This document shows, piece by piece, positions 3,171-37,499 of a stretch of 64,000 nucleotides of DNA. The DNA is from Euglena gracilis (lineage: Eukaryota), in the NCBI GenBank assembly GCA_039621445.1, contig CP154954.1, forward strand, positions 21,526,954 to 21,590,953, written 5' to 3'. The notes beneath the pieces are model-generated. The model saw nothing but the letters and a program-made list of their open reading frames with translations, did no database searches and had not been told where the DNA came from. The position numbers and the translations under genes were made by a program. How positions within the stretch are numbered: the stretch's first letter is position 1; every line of letters starts with the position of its first letter.

Positions 3171-3388
3171 CATGCTTGTGCTTACCAACCGGGGGGGAGG
3201 GGGGGGTGGGTGCTATAGCAGGCACACCCCCCCGGGGGTGCGGCCGCCCGGGGTACCCAGGGTTGGGTTGGGGGAGGTTGGGCAGATCTCCGTGTGTCCA
3301 AGAATCAACAAGCAACCAGGTCGCGATAAGCATCAATGCATTAGGAGCGTTGCATGGTCATTTCCCCGAAGACGGGGCATGTTACAGA

Positions 3389-8200: not shown

Positions 8201-8870
8201 GCCGGTGGGAGGGTGCGGTTCTGTGACCCAGTGCAGAACGGCAAAGCTGATTGGTGCCCCGGTGCACAAAACGCCTCCAGCGGAGGAGGTAATTTGCAAC
8301 CCAGGCGGGAAAACCTGTTGGTTGTCCACTGCTGAGCACATCCGCCAACAGTCAAATAATCCGCTTGAACACTTGCCGGCAAAACTCAACCGATACCGCG
8401 GAAACCCCATCAACGGGGATCACGGGCAGCTGTGGCTTGCCCAGCACTTCAAAAACAGTGGCCCTGGACCCGGTCAGTTGAGAAAGCTGTGATCATTTGG
8501 TTTGAGTCACACGTGAGTATCAAACCAGCATCATGCGACGACCAATCCAATTGCTCTAATTGCCTGGCCAACTGGTGCTCCCTTTTGGGCTAGGAAAAAA
8601 AAACTAAACCACGGCAGATGCAGCCGTGGGGCAGACTGGACGAGCTCCTTTTGACGTGGTGCGGACAGCCACATATGACCACCGGCTGCCCAACTGGGTA
8701 ATTGCCCAGGCACACCCATCCCTTATCTGAACTTCGCCCCCTTTCGTGCCTTTTGGCAGGCTCCCAATGCTGATGGCCAGTCAGACTCGACGGAACTGCA
8801 TCACAGGAATCAGCAGTCTAAGGAGCAAAGGTGGGTCATCATGAAGCCTAAACTGCAAGAGCTGGGTTTC
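5266..8870. repeat. Tandem array, ~965-bp unit, ~3.7 copies
   Basis: Unit marker at 5266, 6234, 7206, 8155; last unit has an internal deletion and is truncated. Confidence 0.95.
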
Positions 8871-9276
8871 CGGTGTTTGTCTGTGCTGTCTTGGTCGTTT
8901 TTTTTTTTCTTGTACCATCTGTCGTACCTCAAATAGGATTACAGGAATGGCTTCCTGTCATAGCACTTTGTTTATATCAAGAACGTCCAAAAAAAAGCTC
9001 AAAAATCGACCGTTTTTTTTGGTTTTCAAAATTCACTCTTTGGAAAATGTGCTTTAAATTGACTATTTTTTGCGAGCCTGAAAATTTTTCAAAAAACAAC
9101 CCCTTTTGGGTTGCCGGAGGTTGTGATTTCGGAATTGCTTGGGGGGGACCTAGGTTTACCCTCCCCGAGCTGTTCCCATCGGTCCATAAAAGAATAGCTC
9201 GGGGGGGGGGTACACTTTCAACTGCCCACCAGCTGTTTTGGGTTGTTTAGACTTCAAATTGTAAAATACTGCATAC

Positions 9277-12200
9277 CAGAGGAAGAAATGGGTGCTGATC
9301 CTTTTGCTTGTCCAGCTGGGTCAACCACTCCTGGGTAAATCTCCTTCACTGTGAAGCAATGGACGTCGCATCATATCAACCAAAACATGAAATAAAAAAA
9401 AACACAAACAAAATTGATTGCAATAGCACACCAAGTAACATGTCTCTGAGCATACCATATCGACCTCCTGGGCTCACTTTCCACTTTGCCGGTCAATCAC
9501 CTTTCAAAAACCTGTCACCCACTTCCAACACCCCCAGGAGGTCAGTCACTCTGGCCTCTCCAGCCAAAATTGCTCGAAATCAATGTATTTTGGCCATTTC
9601 TGGTCAAACATGCAAAAAAAAAAATACTGTGCCTTTGGCACCTGGTGGGCCACTTTTGAGCCAGTCCTGGCTGATCCACCCCAGGGTCTGGAGCCCGAAC
9701 CAAATCGCTCAGAAAAAAAAACCATCCCCGGAGAGGGGGTTGGACACACCTTAAGCAATGGAATGGTTTGGACCAGGCTTTTTTTTTTACCAGCCCTGGG
9801 GGTGCGGGGGGGGGGGGTGCCTTGATCGATGGGGTCCCCCCAGGGGGGTCGGTTTTGGGCCCTGGTGCCTGCTGAGCAAGCTGCCTGTTCCTTGAAAATG
9901 GCTCATTTCTGGGGGGGGGGGGCTAGAGCACTGCCTACCTCAAAATCCAACCCCCTCGGAGCATTAGCTTCATCAAAAAAAAATATGCCTGGAAAATGCA
10001 AATGTTGAAAATGCAAAAATAAAAAAAGCAACTTTCAAAAAAAATTGCTGGGTGTGATGAGGTGGGCAATTTGGAAACAATTGCAATGTACTGCACCCTC
10101 ACCCCAAATAATCCCCCCCCCCCTGTGAGCGTCCAATTTCGAGCAATGGGGTACTGCCCCCCACCAACTTCGCCCCCCCCCCCCCCCCCGCCAGGACTTC
10201 GGGCACCCCGGGGCATATTTGGGGGGGAGTTTAATTGCGATCTGATGTTGCAGGAGAAATGCACGCAGATTTTGGGGAGACTGGCATGCTCTTGCAGGGT
10301 CAAAAAGAAAACAAACCACCACAACTTGGCAAAAAAATCAAGAACCCATTAAAATGCTGAGGAAAAGAAAGCCTCTTTGTTCTGGCCTTTCCTTCTGTAA
10401 TATGGGTAAAACTTTCACTCAGGCTTCTTTGGAAGACACAGGGGAGTTCCCGCCAAAAAAAACAGGTCATTTGAAAGCGTTTCCCAAAAATTTTCCCGCA
10501 CTTTGTGCCGGAACCCAAACCCAGACCCCGGATCCACACCCCAGGGTGTCGCTTAGTGACCGGGGGGGGGGGGTCCAGGTCAGAGGTTAGGAAATTTGGG
10601 CTGGCTGGCCCCCTCTCCCCCCCACAGGAATTGGCCTTTGGGGGTACTCCCTGGAAGTCTGGATGGTATGTCTGGACTCCCAGTCCAAACCATGCCATTG
10701 CGTAGCGACCCCCCGGGGGGGGGGGAGGGGGTCACTTTCCACTCTGAAAAAACCAGTCAGTCACTTTTTCCCAAAAAACCAGTCAGTCACTTCACCCCCC
10801 CCACTTTTCAAAAAAAAACCAGTCAGTCGCTTTACCCCCGGGGGGGGGGGGGGATCGGCCACTCTTGGATGATGAGGAGGAGGCAATGAATATTTGACAA
10901 AAAGTCTCAAGAAAAAATCCAAAAAATTTCCGGCGCCTTCGGCGCCAGGCCAACGACTTTTTCATTTTCGGCCCCGCTTCCACATTCCGGGGCCGGTTGC
11001 ACCTGATGTCAAAGGCAGCGAGGGATTCCGGGATCTCCAGACAGCCAGCACGGAGGCCGCGATGGATAAAGACTCTGGGCTGGTGTTGCCCATGAAATCG
11101 ACCATCTGGGCAGCAACCAGTTCCGGAGTTATGCCAAGGGATCTGACCCATGCTGTAGCTCAGCAACGGCAAACGTGTGAGGGGCAGGGCATTGCTCAAT
11201 GACCAATTGGGGGAGAGGGGGGTGAACCCACAAGCTGGAAATCTTGGGCTGCCTGAAAAAAGGTTGCTGGCTGATCCCCCCCCCCCAAGGGTGAGGTCGA
11301 ACCCGGTGCCCAAAATTGAAACTGCAAAAAAGCACAAAACGAAACATTCTCTATCAACTCAAAACAAAAAACATGTGTTTTCAACTCTTGATTTCGGACC
11401 CCTGTTCGATGTCTGGATCGTCCTTGGACGGCCCTTGGAAGATTGTTTTTTCTTAAAAAAATAAACAAAACCTTTATAAAAAAAACCTTTGAAAACACCT
11501 TAAACCCTTTTTGGGGGAAATCATTGTTTTAAACAATAAAACCTGGTCATTATTTGGGGGGGTGAAACACAATCCCAGCAACAGCATGATCCTGTGTCAG
11601 TTACAAACTCCCGGATGATGCGAATAGCATCGTCTGTCAAGCCAGACCGGTCAAAAGATGGGTAGTCGGACTCCAGAGGAATAACCAACGTTGCCCCTCC
11701 TGTTTGGTGAAACAGAAAACAGATAAACCCATTGTTGACTGCCAGAAATGCGTGGGTACAATCAACTTCAGGACAGCATGAATTGCGGGGAAATGCATCC
11801 CTTTGAATACTTGTTCGAGAAAAAACATCGCAAACTATCTTGCAATACTCAATCAGAAGTGTCAATAAAAAAAACACAACAATTGTGGGATGGGGGGGAT
11901 CCCCAAGTGCCTTGAAATATCTACCCATACGGGAAAACCTGGTGGGGGTGGTCGGTGGTACAAGAAAGCCTGGAGGGGAGAGGAGGTCAACCCCACCCGG
12001 GAAGTGGGGGGGTCAACCCGTGCTGCAAAAAGCAAAATTAGCTCGGAATTAGCTCGGAATCAGGAAGAGCAGGGGTAAGAATTAGCTCGGAATTAGCTCG
12101 GAATCAGGAAGAGCAGGGGTGAGAAGAAAAGGAGGATTCAGGATGCAGCTGGTGACACCTGGGAGAGCAATGGTGGCTGGGGTTGGGGTATCCTTTTGGA

Positions 12201-15200
12201 TCACTCCAACTGGCACTTCGCGTGCTGCTGGTGGCACTGAGGACAGAATTGCAATTGGGAATGGAAGACAGTCAGAGAGAAAAAATACAAACACACACAT
12301 CCACACACGCGCACACACACAGAGAGAGAGAAAGGGGGGGGACAAAAGATCTTAAAAAGATGAGGTGCCCCAGCAGGAAACCCCCAGCAGGAAACATGAC
12401 ATCTGACCATTTTGGTGGTCAATCCTGTAACCACCCTCCCAGGACCTGGTCCGGAGGATTATTTTGAGTGGGGAAAAAGCAAAAAAGCAAAAAATCACTT
12501 CAAAAACAACTTCAAAAACAACTTCAAAAAAGACTGCAAAGACACAAATACAAATAACCATTGAACACCCCGTGAAGATCTTTCACGTTCCTTTGGCCGA
12601 TTTGGACTCCGCAGAAGGGGGCAGTTTTGGACCGGGATCTTCACCGACAGACCCCCCAAAAATAGATGGCAGCCCCATACCACTGGACCCCCCCCCCGGG
12701 GGTCCCAGTGGTATGGCCTGGGGGGGGGGGCGGGGATTTTTTTTAAGACCGGGGGGGGGGGGCGGGGGTTCCCCTCACCCACCCCCCAAGGGGGGGGGGC
12801 CTGCATCCGGGACCCCAGCGGAACCCAGCCTCTCCGTGGCGCAGGGGAGAAACGGCCCCCCACTCCGCCCCAGGGGGTACGGCTAACTGAGTACCTCCTG
12901 GGATGAGGTGGACACCCCCCACCTGTCACTCTAGACACCCCACTCCAGCCCCAGCCCTCTGCAGGTCCACTCCCTCGGTCCGCTGCGGCCGTCGTCCTCT
13001 CGATGTTCTATCGGGCCGCCGTCCTCTCGATTTTCTCTTGGTCCCAGCCACCCACCCACCCACCACCCAACCCAGCCGGCAGCCCCAGCCCCACCCACAC
13101 CCAGCCCAGCCAGCGGCCCCGGCCCCGCCCCCTCCCAGCCCAGCCGGCAGCTCCCCCCCTCCAGGGTCCGGCTCACCCCCCCCCCCCCCCCACCCCCTGC
13201 GGGGGGCCGACCCACCCCCCCCCCCCCCTCCGGGGGTCCGACCCACACCCCCCCCCCCTCCGGGGGTCCGACCCACACCCCCCCCCTCCGGGGTGCAGGC
13301 TGCTAGAACCCAAGTTCTATGGATGTCGTCTTACACACCACGACCCCTCCCCACACGGACGGCTGCACATTGGATGCCCCCCCCCGGCCTGCACCACTGA
13401 CACCAACCGATCCCTCCCCCCGGCCTTTTGGTTGCTTTTCGGCATGCACAAACACACCCAAGACTCTCGTAGCAGGTGATAAGTGTTTCCGGAAGATCCA
13501 ACCCAATATCCCCGAGACGTCTCTCACCCCCCCCGCCCCGGCCCTTGGCCTGCCAACACGCCCCCTCCTCTGTTTTCTACGTCGTCCTCTCTCGGTCCAC
13601 CGCGGCCGTCGTCCTGTCGTTGTTCTCTTTCGGTCCACCGTGGCCGTCGTCCTGTCGTTGTTCTCTTTCGGTCCACCGCGGCCGTCGACCTGTCGTTGTT
13701 CTCTCTCGGTCCACCGCGGCCGTCGTCCTGTCGTTGTTCTCTTTCGGTCCACCGCGGCCGTCGACCTGTCGTTGTTCTCTCTCGGTCCACCGCGGCCGTC
13801 GACCTGTCGTTGTTCTCCCTCGGTCCACCGCGGCCGTCGTCCTCTCGATCTTCCTACCCGCCATCGACCCCGGAGCTGCTCTCGGCCCCCATCAGCCCTG
13901 TTGAGCCCCACACGATCTCCTGTGCCGGCCCATGCCATCATCCCGTCTTCTGTCCGCTCTCTGTCCTGCTCCTCAGCAGGCACGCCCTCATCCATCCATC
14001 ATATCATCCCGGCCTCTGCCCCCCAGCGGGCACGCCCTCATCCCTCCATCACATCCGGGCCCCGGGTAGGCCCCTTGGAGGCAGGGCCATAGAGGCCTTG
14101 TCGACCTTGGGCATTGCAGTGAAGTGGGGCGCTTCTAATCCTAATCCTAATCCCAAGGGGGGGGGGCTCGGCCGGACCCACCCACCCACCCTACCCCCCC
14201 CTCCCCCCCCCACGACTAAAACAACCCCTGGGCGGGGGTCCCACTTGTGTGGGGGGCTGCTAAATAGACTTCCTACCAAAATTGGAGTTTTTCAGCAACT
14301 GACCCAAAAAAATTGACCGGGTTCCAGGTGCATATTATTTGCACCTGGAAGTATGAAGTATGCAAGCACCTATGAAATGGCGTGACTGGGCGTGGCTGGG
14401 CATGACTGGCTTTAAAGAACCTCACAGGTGGGGTTCCGTGACTGGGCATGACTGGGCGTGACTGGCTCATTTTGGCCATATTTTTTTTGGCCATTTTTGC
14501 CCCGTTTGGCCCCTTTTGGCCACTTTCAAATATTTTGGGCCACTTTTGGCTGCTTTTGCTTGCCTTTGGCCATTTTAATCATTATTATTAATCTATTTTT
14601 GCCCACTTTCGATAGATTTTTTAGGCCACCTTTGGACCATTTTTGGCCACTTTTGACCACATTTTCCTATTTTGAAATTGAAAGCAGCAATAAGTGCCCA
14701 TGGCCAAAAGCAACAAAAAAAAGTGGCCAAAAGCAGCGAAAAGCAACAAAAAGTGGCTAAAAGCGGTCAAAAACAGCAAGAAGTGGCCTCAAAATGGCCA
14801 AAGAGCAACAGAAGCGGCCTACTGTGGGCAAAAGTGGCCAAAGGTGGGCAAAAATGGCCAGAGGTGGGCAAAAGTGGGCAACGAAAGCCAAAAGTGGCCC
14901 AAAAATGACCAAAAGTGACTAAACAGCAACTAAAAGCTGCCAAAAGTGACCAAAAACAGCCAGAAGATGGGCAAACGTGGCAAAAAGCCTGTCGTTTAAA
15001 GTTGGGGTGACTGGGGTTTCTAGTGGCATGCGTGGCAGGCGTGGGTGTGACTGGGTGTAACTGGGCATGACTGGGCCTGGGATTCTGGATGACCATAGGT
15101 GCTTGGTGATATGCACCTAAAATATTCTGTACACTGGAAAATGAGCAATAAAAATGCCTTTTCCCTCACTTTTGCATATTGCATATTTTTTTATATTAGG

Positions 15201-17714
15201 TGTTTTCCGCATAAAAAATTTACAAAAAAAATCAAAAATACGAGCATTTTTGGATTCATTTTCAAAGAAAAATCAGGGATTTTCCACCAATTTTGGCCTG
15301 GTATTTGGCCTTTTGCCCATCCACAACCGAGATTTTCCCGGACCCCTCAATTTCGAGGTAGGTGGGGGGGTCTGACCCCCCCTCCATGTTGGGAGGAGGG
15401 GGGGCATTTCTGCCCACCCCTATACAGGAGCGACCATGCCCCCGATTACCAGGCACAGGACTTTTGTGAAATTCAGGGTGCGCTGAGCATGCTTGACATC
15501 GGAGTTAGGGTTAAGGTTAGATTTATGGTCTGAGAATTATCGAATAAATTTCTTTGTGGGTCTACATGTCCTACCTTTCCAAACCATGTCAAATTTGCTG
15601 CAAATGTTACTCTTGTGGATGCACTTAAGCGTAAAAACACCCAACCCTCATTTAACCAATGGCTGAAGAAGCTAAAGCACTTGCCTATTTGGGGGGGGGG
15701 CACTATTCGGAACGTTGGTTGAAAACCGAGGGGGAGGCTTCTATCCGGGGGGGGGGGGGCTTTTATTCGGGGGGGTTACCCCCCTCCCCTCGGGGTCCAA
15801 GACTAAAAAAAACCCTGGCATTAACATCAACATTAACCAAGCAAAACTGTCAAACAAAACAGGACAGGGTTGAACAAACAAAAAATGCGAATTATTTGTG
15901 TCTTCAGTCCTGATGGATGAAAAGCCGTGAGCAAAGCAAACCCCCCATTTTCCTTCACCCTGAGTTGGACTACATTGCAAAACAAAATTTTTTAGGGTGT
16001 TGACAGAGGGGGGGAGTCCAAACCTGCAACACTCGGAAGGTCCGGGTTCCGCTTCCGGAATGCATCCAGGACTGCTGCTGCAGCGGCGCGCACCTCCCCG
16101 GCCTGGCTCCCCTGGAACTCCGGCAGACTGGCCCGGGGCAGGGATCGCTGGACACCCCCCCACCAGGGGTTTTTTTAAGCCCGGGGGGGGGGGAGGGGGG
16201 GTTCCCCCCACCCACCCACCCCCTGGGGGGGGACCCCCCGGGGGGGGAGGGGGTCCCGGGGGACCCACAAAAAATGGCCGAAAAATCGCGAAAAGTGCTA
16301 AAAATAGAATTTTTCGGTGCCTGCGGCGCCGAAAAGTATATCCCACCCCCCTCCGGGGGGCCCCCCCCCGGGGGGGGGGGGCTCGGCCGGACCCACCCAC
16401 CCTACCCCCCCCCCGGGGGTCCAAACTTAAAAAAATCCCTGCCCCCCACCGCCCTGAGCAGGGGCCAGGGGTTTTTTTTTAAGACAGGGGGGGTCCCCCC
16501 ACCCACCCACCCCCTGGGGGGATCCCGGGGGATCCAACCCAATTTTCCCTGAAAAGGCCAAAAAATCGCGAAAAATGCTAAAAATAGCACCCCGTTCAAA
16601 AAATTTTTTGGCGCGTTCGGTGCCGAAAAATATACCCCACTCCCCTCTGGGAGACCCCCCGAGGGGGGGCTCAGCCAGACCCACCCACCCCCCGGGGGTC
16701 CAAGACTAAAAAAATAACCCTTGGCAGGGGCATCCCCTTCAGCGTGCAACGACACCCTGGCCACAATCTGGTCCACGGTGAGGGCGAGGGTGCCGGTCTG
16801 CAGGGCGAAGTTCCGCACCGCCCGGACGGCGCTGCTCAGGATGCCGGCCCGGTCGAATGGGGGGTAATCGTCGTCGGCGGGCATCGTGACGACCACCTGC
16901 CCTGGGAGGGATGGGCCAGGACGCTGCAGAGATGCAGAGCACTTCTCCTTCAGCCTTTCTTTTATTATGATTAAACGAGAGCTTGGTGAGCAGAAACCAT
17001 CCCGATGCATCGGAGTAACAAGATTCCGGGATGGAATGGAAATCATTTCTAAAAAGACCACGCAAATGCAGCAGACATATACAGCAGGGACACTAATTAT
17101 AATTATTATAATATTATACTAATTCTAATCATTAATACTAATTACACCTATTGCTAATGCTAATTATAATATATATATATAATATAAAATTATAATTATA
17201 ATTATAATTATTTGTTCACCCAAATTTTGAGGGTGGTACCCGGCACCCTGCTGGCCGCTGCCCCACAGCAGTGCCCCAGCCAGCTCTGCTGCAGCGCGCT
17301 CTGGAAAAGCCAATTCTACGAGAGCCAAAACTTGTGGGTTCTCGTGGTCAGTTAGGTCGTGGGCCTGGGGGAGGGGTGGGTGGGTAATAAGATGTTGCGT
17401 ACGGGGTTGACATCTGATAAACCAGTTGAGGATGCCACTGCATACCTTCTTCCGAGGCCAAATCATATGCTGCAATCCGTGGGCCAACTGAGAGGACACA
17501 AAGGGCACAGGAAGGTACTTCGTTCAGGGGAAAAAAAAGAGAGAGAACAATCAAAAAAAAATGCATGAAAAAATGAACTTTTTGATGACCAGTGGACCTT
17601 AGAGATGTGGCCGATAAAATATAAACATCTGGTCAAAGAAACTTAAAATACGTAACTGGGGGAACAAAAATAAATAATTTGGGTCCAAAAATTTTTTGGC
17701 CAATTTCAAATTTG

Positions 17715-17802
<88 letters not shown>

Positions 17803-20800
17803 ACCCACCCACCCACCCACACACACACACACTGACATTGGAAAAAGCCATTAATTTTGGGTCCTATGGCCATTACTGTGAGCCACGTGGCCATTATTTT
17901 GGGGCCAGGTGGGCATTCATTTGGGGTGAGGTGGCTGTCAAGCACATATGGTTATCCAGAGTCCCAGACCCAGTCACACCCAATCACGCCCAGTCACACC
18001 CAGCCACGCCAAAAAAAACCCCAGTCATCCCAGCTTCCCTCCATCACCTTTGAGGTTCTCAATGGGGCCCCTTCAACTTCTTGGTTGTTTTTGACCACTT
18101 TTGGCCAGTTGGCCCTTTCATGCCGCTTCTGGCCACATTTGGCCACTTTGCCAACTTTCAGCCACTTTGGCTGCTTCTTTGCTGCTTTTCAATTGAGTGG
18201 GCAATGCCAAAACAAAACTTAACGCATTTGGATTTGGAGTTACTTTCCCAAAACTTCCCAAGAATCCAACACTGTGTGCGACTGTGAAAAACCAGCGAAC
18301 AAGGAAGGAGGGGTTGGGCACCTTCCAAATGAGGATTCTGGCGGCGCCACACTTCCAAAACCATGTCAGCAAGGTCCGCTGCTTTCACAGTCAGTTTTCC
18401 GGCCCAAAGACAGGGATGTGCGAATGCAAGGGGAACGCAACTTGAAAATGTGACCATAAAAAAATAGATAAAAATTGTCAAAATGCCCCCACCCACCCTT
18501 TGGCTGATGGTCAACTGAGCTGATGAACAAGATGGTGTGTGCATGAGGTGTGCATGAGCACATCTCACACGGATGAAAGAGAAAATTGATCACTTCGAAA
18601 TGATTGCAATTTGCTTTGTCCCCAGCTGCAGGAAAAAACCGGGGTGGCAGGAAAGAAGCTGCTGGCTGACCCCCACCCCAGAGATCCCCCCTGGATGGAA
18701 CTGGACCTGACTGACCTAAGTTGAATGGACCTGGAAAAACTGCAAAGAAGAGCAGAATCACAAAATAATAAGCCATTTAAACCTTGAGCTGGGCAATCCA
18801 TTACCAAGCAATTGAGCAATTGAACAATTTTTGTCCAATGTATTTCCGTTTCCAATGCCAAGCTGCCGAAGGGGGCTGGACAAGGAGTGAAAACGGTCTA
18901 CAGGGAGAGAAGGGGGTTAGCCCCATTTGGTTTTAAATCTGTGACTGGATTTAAATCTGTGACTGAACAACAAATCTTTCACAAATCAATCAAACAAACT
19001 ATGAAAGAACAAAAGCGACATATTGGAGGTGAGCAGTGCTGTTCCCAAGCCCTGTCCTTTGCATCAGGTTCCAGGAGGGATTTCCCCAAGTCATGGTGGG
19101 CAATTTTCAAATTGCCATTGGCAACAACGAAGTTCTCCAAGAGGCGGGAGGCGAAATCAACCATCTCATTGTAAAATGGGTACTCGTCTCGCAAAGGGAC
19201 CTTGAAGCGAAAAGCGCTGTAGCCATCTGCGAGACGTGGTGTGAGAAAATGCAGAAGCAGCATTTTCTTTAACAGGGTATCCTCAAAATATGGTCAACCC
19301 AGTTGCTTTCTTGAAATCCAGCCAAGTGGGGGGTGGCTTTATCCTTTCCGCTTTCTGGGATTTCATCCTGCTGGTGCTGAGTATGAGAAAAAGATAATCC
19401 CACAACATGTGAAAGGTGACATAAAATGCAGGCTTCTTTTTAAGACCCGGGGGGAGGGGGTCCCCCCATCCACCCAACCTGGCGCGGGACCACAGGGGGC
19501 GGGACCCCCAAAAATCGGGCCGTCTGAGGCCATTCCCCCCCCAAAAAACACCGGCGCTTCGCGGCAGAACCCATGCCCAGGCCTTCCAGGGACCCCCCCC
19601 AGCAGGGTTCAAAACCACCCATCACCCATTCATCCCCCCGCTGGGGGGGGGTCTTCTGACTTTAAAAAAAAACAGCCTGATAAATGGCATTGTGAAAAGC
19701 AAACTGTCAGTCCATGGAGATGCACACCTGATTCTTAATCCATCCCATTTAACAGTGCGCAGTCACCCCATATTGCAAAATTTTTCCTGATTTTTCCAGT
19801 GTCCATTTTCCTTTTTTTGCCTTTTCTTGGTTTGAGTGTCCATGTTGCATCCACCCCAATTGCAAGACATCTGTTGAACGTCGTATTTCAACACTTTATG
19901 GCTTTTTGAGTAAATTCTCCCAGACATGACTCCCGGCAAAACTGTCCTTTGGGGCCTATTTCATTGATCAGAGGGTTTACTATTCACGTCCTAGGGGGCT
20001 TTATAGAAATTCGCCAGCACTTTGTGCCGAAAGGCATATCCGGCAGAGTTCAAAGGACAGGTGGGCAGGGTGAGTCGGTCCCTCCAGTCCAGAGGGGGAG
20101 CACCCCCCCTCCTGCACAGGTGCTCGGTCTGGGTGACCAATTTCGGCGCCGTCGCAAAGCGCCGGGCCGGAAAAGCTTGCACCTTAAACCCGGCCGGAAA
20201 TGCCAAAAAGTGGAAAACTTTTGGAAAAAAATTGCCAGAAATGCCAAAAAGTTTCGGCTCGAAATGGCAGAAGGAAAAAATACCCCCCACCCAGGATCGG
20301 TCTGGAACCACCCCCACGGGGGGGGGGGGTACGAACCCCCTCTCCTTCACCCTTGGGGACAGGGGGCTTTTTAAGACCAGGGGGGAGGAGGTCGCACCCA
20401 CCCACCCACCCCCTGGGCCCCCCAGGGGGAGGTCCCAGGGACCAGCCACCCTAACCCCCTTCCCCCATGGGCAGGGCAGAACGGGAAGGCCTGGTAAGGG
20501 GGGGTCGACGGCTCCGTGCGGATTTCCGGTGGTCGCCGTCGTGGTGGTCGGGCCGACCATGGTCGGGCCGACCAATGGTGGTCGGGCCAGACATTCATTT
20601 AGTGTGGTTCACAAAAGACGTGTGAACCACAATTTTTTTTTCTGGTGTCCACAGGTGAACCACAATTTTTTTTTTGGTGTCCACAGGTGAACCACAAAAA
20701 AATTTTTGGTGTCCACAGGTGAACCACAAAAATTTTTGTGGTGTCCACAAAAATTGATTGAGGATCGACAAAAAAATAAAATTTACACCTAAAGGCGGAT

Positions 20801-23800
20801 TGATCTTTGGACACCTCAGCCACATTCTGAGCCTTGGCCCTGGCTCAATCCACGAAGCGTGGCAGTTGGAATTGGACAGATTGCTATCGAGAGTTCTCAA
20901 GCAGACGTGCTGTATGGACAACTTACCCAACACGGATACCATCAAAAAGTTAAGTACTGGCGTCGATGAAGCGGAATTCCGCTTCATGCAAGCAGAAACA
21001 CGCGACAATTATCGTGGGGCTTTGGCATGGTTGTGGACATTGGGAGCGTTGTGGGGCATTGTGGGATGTCAGTTGAGTGCCTCAGTGCCTGAAAAAGTGC
21101 CTGAAAGATCGGAAATGCCATGTGCTTTGTTTTGAGGTAGGAGCCGGAAAGCCACTTCATTGGTGTGGTGTCAGATCTTCAACTTGACCATTCAATGAAA
21201 GACCACATTCAGTATAGTTTTTCATTCAGAAAGGTAAATGTCAGCCTCATTCTGGTTTTTGCAGTTTGGCAGTATGAGATAATTAAAAAGTATTATGTCA
21301 GCATGAGGAAGCGGGTAATCGCTTCATATTTGCTCTGCTTTTTTTTTGCAGGTTTTACGCCAATGTCGTGTCGAAATGTCCTTCCAAGTAAAGCACGGGG
21401 AAGTCTGTATCGTTTCGCCTGTTCTACCCTTCGTAAATCGTGCAATTGTCTCCACGCGGTTTGACGTATTTGCATTATGCACTTTGGATAGTGACATTCA
21501 ATTTCTGTTCAGTTTGTTCAGTTTCTGTTATCTTCATAAATTTCATAAATGTTAACGTTCTTCGTTGTTATTGGGGTTGGAATATCGTTTGGTGATTGTT
21601 GATCATTTCAATTCATACTATTATTTTCTACGGATTCTTTCAAAGCGGTTTTACACTTCCTTTTTGGTGTGCAAACATTATGCATATTTTTTTACATTAC
21701 ATTATGTATGATTCATTGCGTTCAGTTTTCGTTGCACATCTCCTGCTTTTGAAGCGGAATGCAATATTTACCGCTTCCATTTTTTAATTTTTCTGTTTCG
21801 TTCCTTCGGGGCCTACGGCAGCAGAAACGACGCTTGTTTTTGTCGGTTCCTCCTGTTCAGGTGTTTCTTGATTGGTTTTGTTGATTACTGGAATTCGAAA
21901 GTAAATTGGCCTTCTTAGGTCTGTTTTCGACTGTATAGGTAAAATCAGAATCTCTTCAAAAAAAATCGAAAACTATGACCCTTTTTTGGAAGTGGTTTTC
22001 TGCTTCCTCTTCTGTTTTTAGAGCACCAGAATTTTTGGCCAACTTACACCGCCTGAGTCAAACATGTCCAAAGAAGGTTGCTTCATTGCTGTTGACGAGA
22101 AAGAAAATGATGCAAATGTCAGCAGGCAGTGGAAAAATTTTTGGTGTCCACATGTGAACCACAAATATTACTTTGGTGTCCACAGGTGAACCACAAAATT
22201 TTTTTTGGTGTCCACAAGTGAACCACAAAAAAAATTTTGGTGTCCACAGGTGAACCACAAAAATTTTTGTGGTGTCCACAGTGAACCACAAAATGACAAC
22301 CTTGGTGTACCACACTAAATGAATGTCTGGGTCGGGCCGACCACCATTTTTTTGCACTACCCCCCCCTTCTGGAGATTTAAGCCCCCCCCCCCCCCTCGG
22401 GGAAAACAGAGCTGAGTCGCTTTTGTAAGTCACTTGGTCACCCCCCGCACCCCCCTCAAATAACAAAGGAGCCCAGACACCGGGGGGGGGGGACCCCCCC
22501 CCCTGTCGTGGTCCGAACTTAACCAGACAAGGGGGGGGGGGGATTCTCGGGACCCGAACTTGACTGCCTAGCTCCCAAAATCCCTATACCAAAACCCTAT
22601 ATCTAACCCTAACCCTAACCGTATACCTAACCCTAACCCTATACCTAACCCTGATCCGAACCCTAACCCTAACCCTAACCCTAACCCTACTCCTTCATTG
22701 ACCGGCTTAGAAAAATTTCAATTTTGAGGACTACAGCCGGCTGTTCAGAAACGTGATAAATTGGCCCCTACAAGGTACCAGCTACCCCAAAGAGCCGCCC
22801 AACTAGGGTTAATACACATGGGGGGACCCTCGCTCGGCGCCTTTGGCGCCTCGCTCGGGTCCCCCCATGTTTTTAACCCTAGTTGGGCGGCTCTTTGGGT
22901 TCGCTGGGTACCTTGTAGAGACCAATCTAACAACGTTGAGCGGGAAATGTTCTGCTGTTTGGATAAGAATCGTAACCCTAACCCTACTCCTTCAAATAAC
23001 CTCATAAATTCTTTTTGGACACAAGAAAACGCCATCAGCAAATTCTTTATAACAAAATCCCCCCTATGTTGGCAACATACTTGAGTGCTAAGTCCTTTTT
23101 GTGCAAAATTTTGCCATTATATTGAAAATCCAACGGGGAGAGGTGTTCTTCTGCCAAAAGTGACCCCAAAATGGGCATATCCCCCCCAAGTTTTTGCATA
23201 TTCACCCCCGATTGGGGGGTTCTGGAGCCATTTAAATGGGTTTTGACTGGCGTTGGGGTGATTTGGACAAAAGTTTTTTTCAGGGGGGGGGCTTAAATCT
23301 CCAGAAAGGGGGGGGTAGTGCAAAAAAATGGTGGTCGGGCCGACCACCACAGGTCGGGCCGACCATGGTCGGCCCGACCACCACGACGGCGACCACCGGA
23401 AATCCGCTCGGGGCCGGGGTCGACCCCCCCCACCCGGGAGGTGGGGGGGTCGACCCCCCCAACCCACCACAGCATTTTCACCGATTTCGGGAAAACGGGG
23501 ATTTTGACCAGAAAAATTTAGAAATTTTTTTTGAAAAATGAACCCAAATACATGATTTTTTGATGGAAAAACACATTTTTATCACAAAAAAATCTCAAAA
23601 AATTCAGGGTTAATTGGTAGTTTTTAGGAGGGGGGTGAAAAAGCCGAAAATCAAAAAAGTGTACCAAACTTTGGGACAGTCAAAATTTACCAAAATGGGT
23701 CAAAAAAAAACACCCGGCGCCGAAGGCGCCGGAAAATTTTTTTCGGGTTCAAAAATTGGTGCTCCCGGAAAATACGGGAAGAGGTGGTGGGGGGGGGTCG

Positions 23801-26800
23801 ACCCCCCCCCCCACCCACCACCCTGGCTGTTCGGCCGATTCCCGTTCTGCCCTGCCCTTGGGAGAGGGGGTCCAAAGCTAAAAAAAAAACCCCTGCTTGG
23901 GGAGTGTCAGCAAAATAATAACTTGGCCAAGCCAGGTGGTTTTCGCATCACAAGCACACTATACTAAGCCAATAACCAATTCCAAAAAAATTTTCACTTC
24001 TGTCAGAAAACCAATAAGCCCCATCATAAAAGCAATTGGACGAGGACAATACCACTGGGCTCCTTTTGTGTGACTGCTGGCTCCACAACTTTTGATGCTG
24101 GTTTCGGTTCAGGAACAGGTTTTGCAACCACAGCAGGCTCTGGCTCTGCAACACGTGCAGGTTCAGCCCTTGAGGCATATGCCGGTTCTGGTTCGACAAC
24201 ATGTGCTGGTTCAGCCCTGATGACATATTCCGGCTCTGGCTCTGCAACGTGAACTGGTGCTTCCCTTGAGATATACTCCAGCTCTGGCTCTGCATACACG
24301 GGCTGTGGTTCAGCCACAACCTCTCTCTCGACCACCTCTTCCTCCACAACTCCTTCATAATGCTCTTCGTAATACTCTTCTGTCAGAGAAAAAAATGTGG
24401 AATGGGCATTGGGAAACAATCATGTTTGGAATGGAGCTGTAATGATGATGCTTCCGGCAAAAGCAGATGGTTCAGCAAACCTCGGCCAACTGGTTCAGGG
24501 GCCTCTTCTCTTGGATATTCATCCTCAAGCCCTGAAAAGAGGTCCAAGAAAAAGGTTTTACAGGAAAAGTCCAGGTGGAGCTGTCCACCACAAATTCATT
24601 TGGCTTCATCAGCTTTTAAAGCCACATCAGACGTATACTCAGTGTGTATGATACACAAATGCTCGGCAATGTACCACAAAAAAGAAAATGCGGATGGATC
24701 AGTTTCTAAGATTTCTAAGATCTGTTTCTAAGATCCCTGGGGAAAGGGTCCCCACACCATCCCGGTGCATGACCCTCCCCGGCGCGGATCCTTCCCCCTG
24801 AAATCAGACCTGAAGAAACCATCTGAAGGCATATTCCAAAAAAATTCCAGTGCTTGCAACAGAACCCATTCCCAGACCGCCAACGCGGGACCATCACCCA
24901 GGATCCCCCAGGTGGGGGGGACAAGTTGAAAAAAGAAAGTAGAAAATAGCTTGTAAACCCTCTTTGATCCACAAGAAACGTAAAAAGATTCTGAACGTTC
25001 TTCCCACATTCCCCCTGTCCACCAACCGGGTTCCTGAAACCCCCAACCAGGGGGGGGGGGCATGCGCGCCCCCGAACGTACCACCACTGACCATGGGGTG
25101 GTCGCAAACACAGGCGCAAAAAACAACCCAATTATCAAAACCACCCACAAACCCCCGACCAGGGGGGTGGTCGTACGCACCTCCTTTCCCGACCTGGGGG
25201 TCGGTGTTTCGGGGTGGTCGGTGGACGGGGGGGGGGGGGCTCAAAAGTGAATGACAACCTTCTTCATGCACCAAAATTCATTCTTTCTCTTTTTTTTAAA
25301 AAAAGATGGGATGAAAAATATTACGTTCTTTTTAACAAAGAAATTTCGCCGCAAAAAATCAATTTCTTTTAAACAAATGAACAAAAGACCTGGGGGGTCG
25401 GTCGGGGTCGGTTTCGACTGGGGGTGGGCGGTTGTTTCGGGGTGGTACGGGGGAACGGGGGTCAAAACGGGGGGCTCATTCACCAAAATTTCATTATTTC
25501 TCTTTTTTTTAAAACAAAGATGATGAAAACTGACAACCCGCCAAACATTCTTTTTTAACAAATGCCACCAAAATTCATTCTTTCTCTTTTTTTTAAAAAA
25601 AGATGGGATGAAAAATATTACGTTCTTTTTAACAAAGAAATTTCGCCGCAAAAAATCAATTTCTTTTAAACAAATGAACAAAAATATTTTGTCAACAAAA
25701 ATGAAGGGTGTATTGAATATTTTTTTTGTTAAACCGTCCAACCACGTTGTATTTCGGGAACTCTGGGCCTTTCTCCATTTGCAAAATGTTCAAAAAACCG
25801 CAGAATATGACATTTGTAATTGCCCCGAAAAATATATGGTTCTGTTATTAAATAGAAGCATTGGTATCAGCTCCTGCCTGCCCAGTGCAGGCACCCCCCC
25901 TAGGGGTTCAGATACCATGGACTGAAATGCCGGCACCAATTTCCCCTGAAACACCAATTTTTCCCTGGGCACGGGCACCTTTCGCACTGGGGGGGGGGGG
26001 AGTGCTATCGCACAACCCGCCCCAAAGCCCAACCCCCGCAGGGAGGGGCCGAAAATGCCCAACCCCCTGCCTGCCCACATGTTAGATGCACTTTGGCTTC
26101 TAAGGCCTGGCGCTGCATTCCACCAGAAGCCCTTTCTGCGGAGCAACTCCCAATGATTGTCCGACCCAATATTCAGTGGGTCTTCAAACTTCCATTTTGG
26201 TTTTTCTTTGCCCTTCCCCCCAACCACTTTGGGTCTTTTTTGACGTTTTTTTTGGCTGTTTTGAAACCTCCCAAAAAAAGGCAGAAAATCAGAGGGGTGT
26301 GCGACAGCTTTGGACCAAAATTTTCCAACCGTGGTTTTGTGTGGTTATCCGCCTTTGCAATTTTCGATTGTGTATGAATTGTCTGGTGTGGAGGGGTTCA
26401 TCAGAAAAGGTTTTCCGGGGTTTCTGAGGAGCACCAGAGGAGACAGGGAGGAAGTTGGTGCTGAAATACGTCGTGAGCTTGTGAAATCTGTCAGTCTGAG
26501 ATCTGATTCCCACAAAGCAAAACCATATTGGCGATATTTTCCAGGCGCAAACATACCATGCCCCCCCCCCCATATAAGACCCCCCTGGCCGGCCGAAGGC
26601 CGGCCCTTTGGCCGGGACCGACCCCCCCCATATAAGACCCCCCCCCATATAAGACCCCCCCCCTGGGATTTTGGCACCCGAGGGGGGGCCTTATATGGGG
26701 GGGGGGGGCATGGTATCTCCATATCCCTCCATATCCCTCCACATCATTGTTTGTGGGGAAAGAAAACCCAACCACCAACCAAACCACAAAGAACACCTAA

Positions 26801-29800
26801 AAACCTAAAACCTGTTTAGGGTATTCGAGTAGGAGACCATCTGCCATCAAAGAAATGCAAGATTGACGTCATGTGGTCCGCATTGATGGGGAGGGGATCA
26901 AATGGTTGGCTGGGGCCACAGCCGCCCTCTGCCTGGCCATGAAAACTTTGTGGGAAGTCGCATTTTTGTTTTTTTTGCATATTTTGCATTTCCGATTTTT
27001 TTTCGGGCATTTGTAGGGGCAAATCTCCACTTTCAGGCAACTGGAAGTTGCACACGTCACGTTTTTTGACCAATTTCACATTACCAGTAGTCGCAAAATG
27101 AAATACAAGTGGATGCAACGAGGTGAACCAACCGTACCAGTTTACAAGGTTTCACCACATTTTCTTCTGGTGTTGCATTCTGGGGCAGGTGGAAATCTAG
27201 CAGAAAAGTGTGCACCCCGGAGATCCAAAAGGAATTTGCATGCAAGTTGCATTTTTTTGCATTTTTTTTTGCACTTTTGTTGCATTTTTTTACATTTTTT
27301 TTGCATTGCATATTTTTGAGGAGTGTTGCATATTCATAATATATTATTGTGATATTTTCCTTTTGTTTGAAACTTTTCTTTGGTGGAGAGGGTGTCTTCT
27401 GATTCCGATAAAAAAAAAACATAATTTTGGGACCTTCCACAGAATTCATTGAAAACTTTTGAAGGGGGGTAATGCAGATTTTTGCAGGTCGGCAGCGACC
27501 CTGCAGGGTTGGTCAGCAGCCCTGGTCGGGCCTGACCACACCATTGCTTAAGCCCCCCCCCCCCAACCCTGTGTGGGGTACTAATCTAACCTAACCAAAC
27601 TAGTGCCCAACTGGGGTTATTACATATGGTGGCCGACCGGCAATTATAACACCCACAGCTTTCTGTACCCAGCCGACGCCCAAGGGCAAACCTTCCAAAT
27701 GGGGATTGTGCATCCTCCAGACATCAAGGACCATTTTTGCATAATACAAAGACTCTTCCCGCTCATTTCCATCCACATCCCGCATCACCTCAGCGACCTG
27801 TTCAGCAGTTAGTCGCAAATGACCACTGTCAGGGCTGGTTAAAGCAGTAGATGAAAAAGAGCAGGAAAGTGCTTCATCCTGCCCTGGATGTTGCCCAAAA
27901 CAAAGTCCTGGATAATGCGGATCGCATCCTCTGTCAAACCCACATCATCACATTCAGGGTACTCCTCGCCACCAGGAATGTTGACACTCACCTCCTCTCC
28001 TGAGAGCAGGAAAACATCATTTCAACAACAATTACAACAACGCATGGTATATCTGCAAAACATGGTGGAACCCAAGAAGGTGACAAAGACAATTTCTGCA
28101 CTTTCACCGCTGACCTGGGACCAGACATTTTTTTTTGCTGTCCCTGGGGGCAACAAAAAAAAGGCTGCATGGAGGCGACCAGCCCATAAATGACACCCCC
28201 AACACCCTGAAAACCCCCCAGGGAGTGTCATTTATGGGGTGCCATTCATGGGGGGGGTCCAATTTTCAAAGGAAAATTTCTTGGGCGCCACCGGCGGCCG
28301 AAAAAAAATCCGATCCCGGAAGGGGAAGTGTCACTTACGGGGGGGGGGATTTATGGGGGGGTCACTGAGCTCTGAGCTTACCACTTACTTAGAAAAGGGG
28401 AGAACCCCCACACTCGTTTTTTTTTCTCTTGGGAAAACATTGTTTCCGGAAATGTCCATAAGACGAAATGTACCCCTGGAGGCCCTCTATCGCCCCCCCG
28501 TTCGCCGTTTTGGCCGCCGACACGCCTGGCCCGTGTTTCGGCGCGATTTTGTGGCCCAAAACGGCCATTTTGGTGTTTTTTGGAGGGGGGACATTTTTGA
28601 TCAAAAATCGGGTTTCCAAAATATCTCGACAATGAAGCAAAATCAAAGAAAATTCCCGGAGAGCAAAAAATGAAGCCCTTGGAATGCCCTATCCAACCAT
28701 GCTTTGCTTTCCCCCCAACTCTGCGTGTAGCCCGAGTTACGGACATTTTTCGGCCAATTTCAGCCCATTCCATTTCAGGGGCCATTTTGGGCTGTTTTCA
28801 GAGTCAAAAAATCGATGTTTTCAAAATATCTCAAACACAAAGCATTTTGGGGCAATCTCCAAATTGGTGGGGAATCAAAGGAAAGGGGACCTAAATAAAG
28901 CCCCTGGACTGCTGCCAGGGCCAGTTGCGCACCTGGGACGGGGCCGGCAGACCGGGCCAGGCCAGGAAGTATGCCTGGCAGCCGGCCGGGCCGGGCTGCG
29001 CCGCTTCCTCCAGTTTGCGAAATTGGGTTGGGTTGGGCCGGGCCGGGCCACCAGGTTGGGCCGAATGTTCGACCTGGGGCACATACCTCAAACATTTGCT
29101 GCGGCATGGCACCATCAGGCATGTAAAGAGCTCAGCACTACACAAAACCTGGTACAGTCCCTGGGCGTAAATCCCCCCCCCCGAAAATTCCCCCCTCCTG
29201 AAGTTTCGGTAGGGCTGTTTCGATTAATCGATTAATCGATTAATCGTTCGTCATCGCCGATTAATCGAATCGTTCGGCCCATGGCGATTAACCGTTCATT
29301 GTGGATGTCAACCACAATAGGCACAATATTTGTTGAAATCAACAAAAATTTGTGGAGTAGTCAGTCAGATAGCACATTACTTGCTGGTACACCATGAAAA
29401 CGGTTGTTAAAAGTGGCCAACAAGTCAGCGAACGTGCCAGTGAAACATCGCGCGATTCTGATTAAAATACAGCAGTTCCTAATAAGCTTCGTTCTGCCAT
29501 GTCGACAGAGAATGAAACAAAAATTCGTCAGCAGGCACACAAAGAAATGGTCTAGGTTCGATATTAGAATTTCTCAGGCAGATTTCATCATCAAAAATCG
29601 GAAGGGACCAATTAATTGTTAATCGTCCGAGACACCCCGATTAATCGAGATTAATCGTTCGCCAGCCCGAAACGATTAATTGGCACAACCCTAGTTTCGG
29701 AATTTCCCTGGATTTGCAAAAGGCTCTAAAAACGTGTTCAGCCCGCCAAATGCCTGCCCTGAAATTCGTGGTAATGAACACGTTTTCAATGAGGGCATCT

Positions 29801-35800: not shown

Positions 35801-37394
35801 ATAATCCATAAAAGCCCAAAATTGGCCCAAAAAGCCCAAAATTTCTGTTGTACTGAGCGAACGAAGACATAAAAGCTGCAGGGAAGTGGGGGGTAGATTT
35901 GGCCTGGGGGGGGGGGTTGTGGGCAGACCCTAGGGTCGCCAAAGGTCGCCATGGTCGCCAAAGGTCGCCATGGTCGCCAAAGGTCGTGGGCAGGTCGATG
36001 TCAAAAAATGCGCTCCACGGCAAATTAGCGCAACATACGCACAAAAGGTGTTGCACACACAAGGGATTTTTTTTTTTAGGGCCCTGGAACAGTTGCCTAC
36101 GCCGCTACAATGCAAAAAAGACTGAGTAGGAAATACCCATAGCGACCTTTGGCGACCTTTGGCGACCGTGGGCAGACCCTAGGGTCTGCCCACAACCCCC
36201 CCCCCCCAGGCCAGATCCGGGAGCCGCAGGGAAGTGATAGGATTGGAGGGGCAGATGGTCTGCCAGTGATCACCGATGGCAGTTAGGATAGCCGTGAACT
36301 TCCGTCATCATAGCCGGTTTCCTAACCGTAATTGGTGTGGATCGACTGACAGACTTGATGCACTGCCGTGGATCGACAAGTACCGAAATAACCCCCTGCC
36401 TATCACAATAATCACCATTGTATATGGTGTGGATTATCCTTTTTGGGCCTGAACGATCCTGTTCGGGGGTTGCGAACGAATAATCACTAGTCAACTAGTC
36501 GTCGCAACCTTGGGGTGAAAAAGAAAAACAAAGTCCCATTTCCAAGACAAGCAAAACCCTGGTGGCAAGGTGCGGCCAGGCTGCTTCTGGTCGGCGTGTG
36601 CCGCAACAGGTTTACCCCCCCTATTGTCCCTGAGCCCCAGCCGATGGAGGGTTTTTTGGCCGGGCCAAAAAATTCTCTTTGGCACGCTCGCATTGTCCCG
36701 CACCTTGCAAGAAACCCAGAGGCGGCAGTTGGAGAAAAGGGGGATAAAAGCCGCTGACCCCTTTGTCATGCAAGGCTGCCCACCCAGAACAGGGAAATGG
36801 GGTGATTTGCCTGAAGGGCAAAAACTCCAAAAGTGCGACCCAAAAGGGGGCGGGGTTCTGCCGCGTAACAGACAAGTACCGACTTTGGTACTTGTTCGCT
36901 AAGCGACCCCCACCGAAATCTTTCTAAGTTATTGAAGGAGTGGGGTTAGGGTTACAATTCAGGTCAGAAGTTAGGCCAAATTTCTGGCCTGACTTTGGTC
37001 CTAACAAGTACCCCGACTTTGCCCTTCCAACTTGAATTGAGTTGAGTTAAAATGAAAAAAATGAAAATTGAAAAAGAACACAAATCAAAGGTCCAACATC
37101 CCTTGTGTCCCCCCAATTGCAGAAGAATTGCAAAAAAAATCCGTGTTTCTTGGTGTTACACGGGAAGATTAGACCCAAAAAAGTCCTCCCCCCCCCAAGG
37201 CCAAGGGGAGCGCCACCAGGAGAGCAAAAAAATGAAATGTGGCTGTGGCTTGGCACACCTTGTTCTCCTTCTTGCAAAAAATTTTCTTCATATTGCGGTT
37301 CGTACTGTCCCTCATAATACTGTTCACCTGTGGAGGAAAGAGGATGAATTTTCATCACAAAAGAACTTAAATCACCTTGTTCTTCGTGCGACAT
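9277..37394 (-). CDS. Gene A: multi-exon hypothetical protein with four copies of an unrecognised ~80-aa domain and an E/P/V/A-rich linker (3' end not found)
   Basis: Frame-consistent exons: 37394-37376, 37327-37259, 27999-27890, 27824-27692, 24531-24481, 24379-24053, (19941-19855?), 19226-19058, 18404-18322, 17487-17423, 17364-17220, 16901-16763, 16133-16024, 12236-12159, 11699-11592, 11143-11003, then tentative 9572-9523, 9483-9456, 9348-9277. Could instead be two tandem paralogs split near 19-24 kb. Confidence 0.7.
11003..11699 (-). CDS. Gene A domain copy 4
   Basis: GGATLVIPLESDYPSFDRSGLTDDAIRIIREFVTDTG|SLGITPELVAAQMVDFMGNTSPESLSIAASVLAVWRSRNPSLP; internal intron 11144-11591 gatCATgctgt...acagcATGggtca. 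Confidence 0.8.
12037..12120. repeat. Short direct duplication (~43 bp x2)
   Basis: aattagctcggaattagctcggaatcaggaagagcaggggt repeated. Confidence 0.8.
13593..13845. repeat. 38-bp minisatellite, ~7 copies
   Basis: cggtccaccgcggccgtcg(t/a)cctgtcgttgttctct(c/t)t at 13593, 13631, 13669, 13707, 13745, 13783, 13821; no spacers. Confidence 0.9.
16024..16901 (-). CDS. Gene A domain copy 3
   Basis: GQVVVTMPADDDYPPFDRAGILSSAVRAVRNFALQTGTLALTVDQIV|ASLPEFQGSQAGEVRAAAAAVLDAFRKRNPDLP; internal intron 16134-16762 ggcCAGggtgtcg...cgatccCTGccccg. Confidence 0.8.
16164..16441. mobile_element. hAT-like MITE (278 bp)
   Basis: Termini caggggttttttt / aaaaaaatccctg; 8-bp TSD ccccccac. Confidence 0.8.
16466..16723. 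mobile_element. hAT-like MITE (258 bp)
   Basis: Termini caggggtttttttt / aaaaataacccttg; 8-bp TSD gcaggggc. Confidence 0.8.
17719..17832. repeat. (CA)n microsatellite
   Basis: Direct reading. Confidence 0.95.
18322..19226 (-). CDS. Gene A domain copy 2
   Basis: GYSAFRFKVPLRDEYPFYNEMVDFASRLLENFVVANGNLKIAHHDLGKSLLEPDA(K/R)|AGKLTVKAADLADMVLEVWRRQNPHLE; internal intron ~18405-19057 ggaCAGgg...ccCTGtcttt. Confidence 0.75.
19429..19679. mobile_element. hAT-like MITE
   Basis: Termini caggcttcttttt / aaaaaaacagcctg; imperfect TSD ataaaatg / ataaatgg. Confidence 0.6.
20588..22329 (-). mobile_element. hAT-like non-autonomous element (1742 bp) nested in another repeat
   Basis: 21-bp TIR cagacattcatttagtgtggt; 8-bp TSD ggtcgggc; subterminal ~33-bp repeats ggtgtccacaggtgaaccac at both ends. 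Confidence 0.85.
22583..22690. repeat. Interstitial telomere-like (CCCTAA)n, degenerate
   Basis: ctaaccctaaccctaacc runs with variants. Confidence 0.8.
22768..22918. mobile_element. Foldback/MITE-like palindrome
   Basis: Arms cccaaagagccgcccaactagggttaa / ttaaccctagttgggcggctctttggg around a central ggcgcctttggcgcc. Confidence 0.65.
24053..24531 (-). CDS. Gene A low-complexity exons (AEPEP-like repeats)
   Basis: Exons 24531-24481 (51 nt) and 24379-24053 (327 nt), both phase 1-1 with GT-AG borders; ...VAEPEPEYVIRAEPAHVVEPEPAYASRAEPARVAEPEP... Confidence 0.8.
26556..26713. mobile_element. MITE with TA target (Tc1/mariner-like)
   Basis: ta|ccatgcccccccccccatataag ... cttatatggggggggggggcatgg|ta. 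Confidence 0.7.
27692..27999 (-). CDS. Gene A domain copy 1
   Basis: GEEVSVNIPGGEEYPECDDVGLTEDAIRIIQDFVLGN|GHLRLTAEQVAEVMRDVDGNEREESLYYAKMVLDVWRMHNPHLE; AG/GT outer borders; internal intron 27825-27889 atcCAGggc...gccCTGacagt. Confidence 0.8.
29210..29693. mobile_element. hAT-like MITE (TAGGG termini)
   Basis: tagggctgtttcgattaatcg / cgattaattggcacaacccta; TSD (a)gtttcgg; cgattaat subterminal repeats. Confidence 0.75.
29727..30871 (-). mobile_element. PHD-fragment-bearing repeat element, copy 1 (internally deleted)
   Basis: Inverted near-identical copy of 44375-45921; flanking ccacagatgcc 29/32-bp repeats; long terminal hairpin 30752-30865. Confidence 0.75.
31298..31503. mobile_element. MITE, possibly piggyBac-like
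   Basis: C-run+taatagaagcacggg / cccgtgcttctatta+G-run; flanks ctaa / ttaa. Confidence 0.55.
32040..32520. repeat. ~135-147-bp tandem repeat, 3+ copies
   Basis: cccttggtcgtcta...aaaatccctttgctgccggaccg...gagggcgccttcggcg repeated, with variable G/C runs. Confidence 0.85.
37259..37394 (-). CDS. Gene A exons 1-2 (MSHEEQ|GEQYYEGQYEPQYEENFLQEGEQ)
   Basis: ATG lies 9 nt after a ttttttAG acceptor (37404-37405, possible trans-splice site); 48-nt GT-AG intron at 37328-37375; GT donor at 37258. Confidence 0.7.
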
Positions 37395-37499
37395 GACAGG
37401 GTACTAAAAAATGAGGGTGCTCTCTGATCAATCTGGAAGGTGATCAATGAAGCTGAATGTCCAAACCCCACGCCCACGCCCACCCACCCACCCACCCAC

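Follow-up and report, generated by a model that had tools for sequence, protein, structure and literature searches.

A four-copy, intron-split domain of about 80 residues in a Euglena gracilis gene

What is encoded by eight short pieces of DNA that share conserved motifs, lie scattered over 17 kb of one strand, and nowhere form a complete domain within an open reading frame? The question is raised by a stretch of 64,000 nucleotides (nt) from Euglena gracilis (assembly GCA_039621445.1, contig CP154954.1, positions 21,526,954 to 21,590,953 of the forward strand), here called the window and numbered from its first letter. An earlier note, made from the letters alone, had proposed that the pieces are minus-strand exons splicing in frame into four homologous modules of an unrecognised domain, each cut by an intron without GT-AG borders. 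The region belongs to a single expressed E. gracilis gene, which covers more than 37 kb of the minus strand. The module that it encodes is most likely, we infer, a lineage-specific docking domain, present in four copies in a scaffold protein.

The gene and its protein product

Between 10.9 and 28.0 kb, the stop-to-stop open reading frames contain eight motif-bearing pieces, in which N-terminal halves (N-halves) and C-terminal halves (C-halves) of a module alternate along the strand, and which are minus-strand exons of one gene (Table 1). Searched among longer proteins, a profile of just the N-halves retrieved the gene product as the EukProt protein EG_transcript_826 (P0001, 973 residues; E 1e-82), and also returned EG_transcript_8264 (P0003, 479 residues) and a 96-residue fragment. 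By exact-word mapping, residues 1-547 of P0001 fall into 15 coding exons of the minus strand (37394 to 9278). By tblastn, 546 of these 547 residues are identical to the window, the sole difference being I in the protein and T in the window. Each N-half is joined in frame to its own C-half, as the earlier note had foreseen. Residues 548-973 (426 residues) have no match within the window by either method, and a phase-1 G/GT donor at 9277/9276 closes the last exon that could be mapped (in motifs, the slash marks the splice site). Hence the gene continues past the window start.

The eight pieces stand where they had been placed, but the exon total was too low: the span 11003-27999 holds 12 coding exons, four of them linkers between modules that were missed. 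This span is likewise only part of the gene, which has further exons at 37.3 kb and 9.3 kb as well as its continuation beyond the window. The protein had also been called hidden, which is true of the genomic open reading frames but not otherwise, as its spliced form was already present, unannotated, in a public transcriptome set.

The four tandem modules of P0001 are 81-83 residues long. An acidic spacer of 124 residues lies between the first two, and linkers of 15 and 27 residues between the others. The N-halves carry the motif h-x-h-P...E-Y-P..D..G....A.R....F, and the C-halves A..V-L..[W/F]-R..N-P.L. In an alignment of the four copies, all N-halves share P, Y, P, A, R and F, and all C-halves share A, V, L, R, N, P and L. 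Module 2 departs from the proposed consensus, with N replacing D and the G absent. A six-frame motif scan of the window found no additional match to either half, and a third, less strict pattern matched at one further place, 25746-25763. In a MAFFT alignment of the half-modules alone (n = 8), C-halves were stacked onto N-halves.

Two observations concern the gene more generally. A pyrimidine-rich run ending in AG at 37404-37413, 9 nt upstream of the start codon, is a possible acceptor for spliced-leader trans-splicing, which is usual for Euglena mRNAs. Of words sampled from 27560-28100, a fraction of 0.69-0.71 was present in 14 sequencing runs and 0.35 in four, figures that do not constitute evidence.

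Family range and the search for a known fold

The family was sought with a profile of eight rows, comprising module 1 and the P0003 module in full, and the six other half-modules from the window. Against 1.84 billion representative proteins it gave 25 matches at E ≤ 1e-3, 11 at E ≤ 1e-10 and 2 at E ≤ 1e-30, of which 22 were judged to be genuine members. Excluded were P0018, P0020 and P0022, long repeat proteins with many weak stretches matching only profile positions ~28-69. The module pattern goes beyond chance, because the profile of N-halves alone found P0003 (E 4e-6, 5.8 billion sequences) through a match that runs on across a C-half absent from the query. Module 1 and the module of P0006 are 49% identical by BLASTP (E 2e-16).

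The named sources of members are E. gracilis (P0001, P0003 and P0016) and Entosiphon sulcatum (P0011). Of the matches, 20 were looked up by cluster, and their only sources were EukProt, JGI/IMG, ENA and Logan, with none from NCBI or UniRef. A word-indexed search of longer proteins with a profile of 25 module sequences, covering the best 8000 candidates, together with a search from the C-terminal region, added just P0032 and P0033. Such a search with P0001 residues 570-740, among proteins of near length only, found no relative of the C-terminal region, which is weak evidence. In the literature, the name EG_transcript_826 occurs in no full-text match, and none of the matches listed for novel or lineage-specific euglenid domains deals with this one.

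Pfam offered no family for the exon pieces, for P0001, or for the module in ten homologues, the exon pieces giving sub-threshold noise only (DUF4313, E 0.11; DUF1899, E 0.0019, under its cut-off). With hmmscan against Pfam-A at E ≤ 10, the 25 module sequences produced just scattered single matches (E 0.095-0.25). Profiles against PDB sequences reached a best E of 0.37-1.3, judged to be noise; NCBIfam held nothing near its cut-offs, and the ESM Atlas no usable match. An AlphaFold2 model built from the 25-row alignment had a mean predicted local distance difference test score (pLDDT) of 85.9 and a predicted template modelling score (pTM) of 0.73, with the first 20 residues extended and helices at 21-36, 43-49 and 61-75. 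In the predicted fold, an extended N-terminal segment thus packs against three helices, and Foldseek found no match for this model in the PDB at E ≤ 0.001 (best E 1.2).

These comparisons of sequence indicate that the domain family is genuine and new, that it matches no named family, and that it is euglenid-only among named sources. The best-kept positions of the 25-row alignment are A (22/22), V, W, L and a second A (21/22 each), and N and L (20/22 each), followed by G (18/22), D (17/20), P (16/17) and Y (15/18). Euglena and Entosiphon have the core positions in common, which bears out the suggestion that the module is under constraint; the claims of lineage specificity and of novelty stood up likewise. 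The family adds a delimited unit of ~80 residues, foldable in prediction and found in 22 representative clusters and no fewer than five architectures, to a largely unannotated euglenid proteome, and could be deposited as a new Pfam-type entry, which would help in annotating euglenid transcriptomes. Current understanding is not overturned, as lineage-specific orphan domains are expected in Euglena.

A proposed docking role and its rivals

The company kept by the module is diverse. By Pfam, P0007 combines a WD40 propeller, the module and a DsbA-like domain (DSBA), with P0003 as its Euglena counterpart; P0011 has a C2 domain, the module and an EF-hand pair; and P0014 a U-box, the module and a LURP-one-related (LOR) domain. 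Other members are multi-copy, with four modules in P0001, three in P0004 (which consists of modules alone) and two in P0005. In P0006, one module is accompanied by about eight short repeats and by a C-terminal region that aligns with P0001 residues 569-737. This region, which in P0001 is encoded beyond the window, may at most be called weakly PDZ-like. The repeats of P0006 (residues ~100-345) read D/E-E-Y-G-F-T-G-S-x-E-E-Q-x-A-A-A-x-I-Q-x-x-W-R-S-R, and in BLASTP align onto the E-Y-P start and the last helix of the module, like a mini-module without its middle. They have the look of IQ motifs, an identity that was rejected, as Pfam gave no IQ match at E ≤ 0.01.

Four considerations favour a docking role. 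Firstly, the module occurs in unrelated architectures. Secondly, it folds alone in prediction. Thirdly, polar and aromatic positions are kept in two euglenid genera. Fourthly, several of its weak structural neighbours of the SWIRM type come from SNF5-type complexes. A docking or scaffold part also suits the array of four copies. The module would then be an autonomous unit of protein-protein interaction, which euglenids attach to a U-box ligase, to WD40 and DsbA domains, and to C2 and EF-hand domains, so directing these to one common location or partner. With four copies on flexible linkers, acidic or proline-rich, and the weakly PDZ-like region C-terminal to them, P0001 would be a multivalent scaffold. 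Taken jointly, the four-copy gene, the domain family and the role as a docking, four-valent scaffold have in our estimation about an even chance of being correct.

Several points weigh against this combination. The docking role is drawn from domain context only. The alignment behind the structure model is small, and six of its 25 rows are half-modules. Restriction to euglenids is read from four named proteins and from the lack of NCBI or UniRef matches, most members having no named source. Splice junctions were set by protein identity only. As for the C-terminal region, P0006 scores below the PDZ threshold (PDZ_6, E 0.0039, 17.3 bits against a cut-off of 27), and that of P0001 has only a DegP-type match in NCBIfam (E 0.051), below the cut-off.

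Multiple copies also suit a different kind of assembly, in which the module associates with itself, for instance through an alternating hydrophobic N-terminal strand, and a four-copy protein forms a lattice or condensate rather than docking onto partners. The N-terminal h-x-h-x-h-P looks strand-like and is unpartnered in the predicted monomer, and P0001, P0004 and P0005 all carry the module repeatedly. Nothing directly opposes this alternative, which we nevertheless consider unlikely.

It is quite unlikely that the module is a regulatory domain binding an ion or small ligand, such as a degenerate Ca2+ sensor, by way of the acidic loop between helices 2 and 3. This loop, M-x-D-F-x-G-N...E-S, is among the best-kept parts of the module (M 17/22, D 16/22, F 14/22, G 18/22); the modules are mostly acidic, with a net negative charge in 18 of 25 rows and net -13 in module 1; and the C2 domain and EF-hand pair of P0011 are Ca2+-related partners. 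The acidic helical character and the conserved D...G-N...E loop are shared with EF-hands and calmodulin, a likeness that serves as a lead only. However, the classical EF-hand models (PF00036, PF13499 and relatives) matched none of the 25 modules at E ≤ 10, the one relevant match being a WEF-hand at E 0.097, and EF-hand identity was rejected. The loop is unlike the canonical pattern of a 12-residue Ca2+ loop, and the model is three-helical, without the two helix-loop-helix pairs of an EF-hand domain. No EF-hand chain occurs among the 50 best VIA rows, which is weak evidence only.

The SWIRM domain (PF04433), known from BAF155/SMARCC, Swi3 and LSD1, suggests that the module might be a SWIRM-like or helix-turn-helix-like domain binding chromatin or nucleic acid, which is very unlikely. 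The two are of similar size (~85 residues), and several of the weak structural neighbours are crystal structures of SWIRM bound to SNF5/BAF47, in which it is a protein-docking domain. However, there is no SWIRM sequence signal in the module family, with no match among the 25 modules at E ≤ 10 and none in full-length P0001, P0003 or ten homologues, and no SWIRM counterpart is established for the extended N-terminal Y-P...D segment. The acidity of the modules, which have an isoelectric point (pI) of 4.0-5.7 in 17 of 25 rows, tells against binding to nucleic acid. The partner domains also differ, with no nuclear or DNA-related domain co-occurring in the members' Pfam architectures; C2, EF-hand, U-box, WD40, DsbA and PDZ-like domains are usually non-nuclear.

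The modules might owe their pattern to chance, or be decayed sequence without function, but this is scarcely credible, as no support for it was found beyond the degeneracy of module 2 at its D and G positions, whereas a transcriptome-derived spliced protein holds the four modules, all of them in frame, a second euglenid genus has conserved homologues, and the fold is confidently predicted.

Cassettes, introns and repeats

How the four modules arose can be approached through their introns. At each junction, every placement of donor and acceptor that reproduces the residues of P0001 was enumerated. A GT-AG placement was available at all nine enumerated junctions outside modules; at the tenth (residues 236/237), where the I/T difference blocked enumeration, the sequence reads by eye AGT G/GTATT...CGCAG/AT. 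The ten complete GT-AG introns are all of phase 1, as is the donor at 9276, splitting the codon after its first base (G/GT), and the linker exons are all multiples of 3 nt (69, 51, 327, 42, 78 and 72). With GT-AG placements, each module is a two-exon cassette, of 243, 243, 249 and 249 nt for modules 1-4, flanked by GT-AG introns.

Inside the modules the picture differs. As the earlier note had claimed, no protein-compatible placement there gives GT-AG, nor does any give GC-AG (none of 2, 3, 7 and 6 placements in modules 1-4 respectively). All four intra-module introns therefore agree with euglenid nonconventional introns in having neither border. The code of such introns in Euglena is given as 5'-N3-CDG ... 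CH'G-N5-6 / purine in PMC12501133. At protein-level junctions, two of the four introns (modules 1 and 3) fit the code exactly, and those of modules 2 and 4 do so at no protein-compatible placement. The latter nonetheless carry complementary CAG/CTG-type motifs near both ends, although these pairs lie ~4-5 nt further in than the code as given there allows. Either the junctions or the spacing rule may be looser in these two introns.

The internal introns also differ in position, falling at column 39/40 of the module alignment in module 1, 40-41 in module 4, 50 in module 3 and 57/58 in module 2. We suggest that the array formed through tandem duplication of a phase-1 cassette, and that nonconventional introns entered afterwards, at two or three distinct positions. 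In animal modular proteins, mobile domains are described as spreading by exon shuffling of phase 1-1 cassettes. The modules here share their phase-1 boundaries, their lengths divisible by three, and the occurrence of one domain in several unrelated architectures. They differ in being split by a nonconventional intron at a varying place, and in belonging to a protist with apparently intracellular modular proteins. The locus is a natural example for the study of intron evolution, as four paralogous cassettes with identical conventional boundaries have nonconventional introns at differing internal positions, which bear on when and how such introns were gained.

A bolder extension of the docking proposal is possible, though doubtful: that this undescribed fold-level family is a euglenid address tag, by which one receptor (for example at the pellicle or flagellar apparatus) recruits U-box, WD40-DsbA and C2/EF-hand proteins along with a four-headed scaffold, and that, as recorded in this locus, nonconventional introns were inserted independently at least twice into paralogous copies after duplication of the cassette.

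Four fragments from Logan and JGI (P0002, P0017, P0021 and P0026) are module-like for 27-48 residues and then continue into unrelated sequence, with differing break points, as would be expected if other module genes are also split by introns and were read from unspliced RNA or from the genome. P0026 breaks off after T-G-S, as does module 4 of the present gene.

Table 1. Coding exons and intra-module introns of the gene in the window. Pieces are the approximate extents of the motif-bearing stretches in the open reading frames.
Feature	Position	Strand	Piece	Basis	Remarks
Coding exon 1, residues 1-7	37376..37394	-		Protein mapping, junction enumeration	Holds the start codon (37394); a 48-nt GT-AG intron follows
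Coding exon 2, residues 8-30	37259..37327	-		Protein mapping, junctions	Acidic N-terminus; followed by a 9259-nt GT-AG phase-1 intron
Module 1 N-half exon	27890..27999	-	27997-27890	Motif, alignment, protein mapping, junctions	
Module 1 nonconventional intron	27825..27889	-		Junction enumeration against published code	65 nt; fits N3-CAG...CTG-N5/G
Module 1 C-half exon	27692..27824	-	27824-27687	Motif, alignment, protein mapping, junctions	
Linker exon, residues 112-127	24481..24531	-		Protein mapping, junctions	
Linker exon, residues 128-236	24053..24379	-		tblastn, protein mapping	Acidic E/P/V-rich spacer; carries the I/T difference
Module 2 N-half exon	19063..19226	-	19227-19063	Motif, protein mapping, junctions	
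Module 2 nonconventional intron	18401..19062	-			662 nt; junction within 1 nt; no GT-AG; N3/N5 spacing not fitted
Module 2 C-half exon	18322..18400	-	18400-18323	Motif, protein mapping, junctions	
Linker exon, residues 318-332	17446..17487	-		Protein mapping, junctions	
Module 3 N-half exon	16763..16901	-	16899-16759	Motif, protein mapping, junctions	3' end slidable over 16763-16757
Module 3 nonconventional intron	16134..16762	-			629 nt; 1 of 7 protein-compatible placements fits N3-CAG...CTG-N5/G
Module 3 C-half exon	16024..16133	-	16129-16025	Motif, protein mapping, junctions	
Linker exon, residues 415-441	12159..12236	-		Protein mapping, junctions	
Module 4 N-half exon	11587..11699	-	11697-11587	Motif, protein mapping, junctions	
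Module 4 nonconventional intron	11139..11586	-			448 nt; 6 protein-compatible placements, none with GT-AG or the published spacing
Module 4 C-half exon	11003..11138	-	11138-11004	Motif, protein mapping, junctions	
Exon after modules, residues 524-547	9277..9348	-		Protein mapping	Phase-1 G/GT donor at end

The window also contains repeats of several kinds. Within the intron downstream of exon 9348-9277 lies a tandem repeat of ~970 bp, with at least seven copies over 269-8454 (spacings 949-973 bp, many copies 96-100% alike) and an interruption of ~2 kb between 3.1 and 5.2 kb; it is echoed in tblastn. Two adjoining inverted-repeat pairs, at 29727-30624 and 44811-45921, bracket the first coding exons at 37.3 kb. 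Their arms lie 14-15 kb apart, are complementary over 505 nt (99%) in one pair and 389 nt (98%) in the other, and each contain a 31-32-bp minisatellite; the whole could be a large foldback element, transposon ends or a feature of the assembly. Intron stretches rich in runs of G or C (12400-14300, 15700-16700, 19300-19700, 20000-20650, 22100-22600, 23100-23950, 24700-25300 and 26300-26800) translate as P/G-rich open reading frames on both strands, and through their recurrence look like a dispersed repeat family. Shorter arrays comprise a 38-bp minisatellite of seven copies at 13580-13847, an intronic (TG/CA)n microsatellite at ~17.7-17.85 kb, seen as open reading frames of C-V and T-H repeats, and a (TACCA)48 array at 57700-57939.

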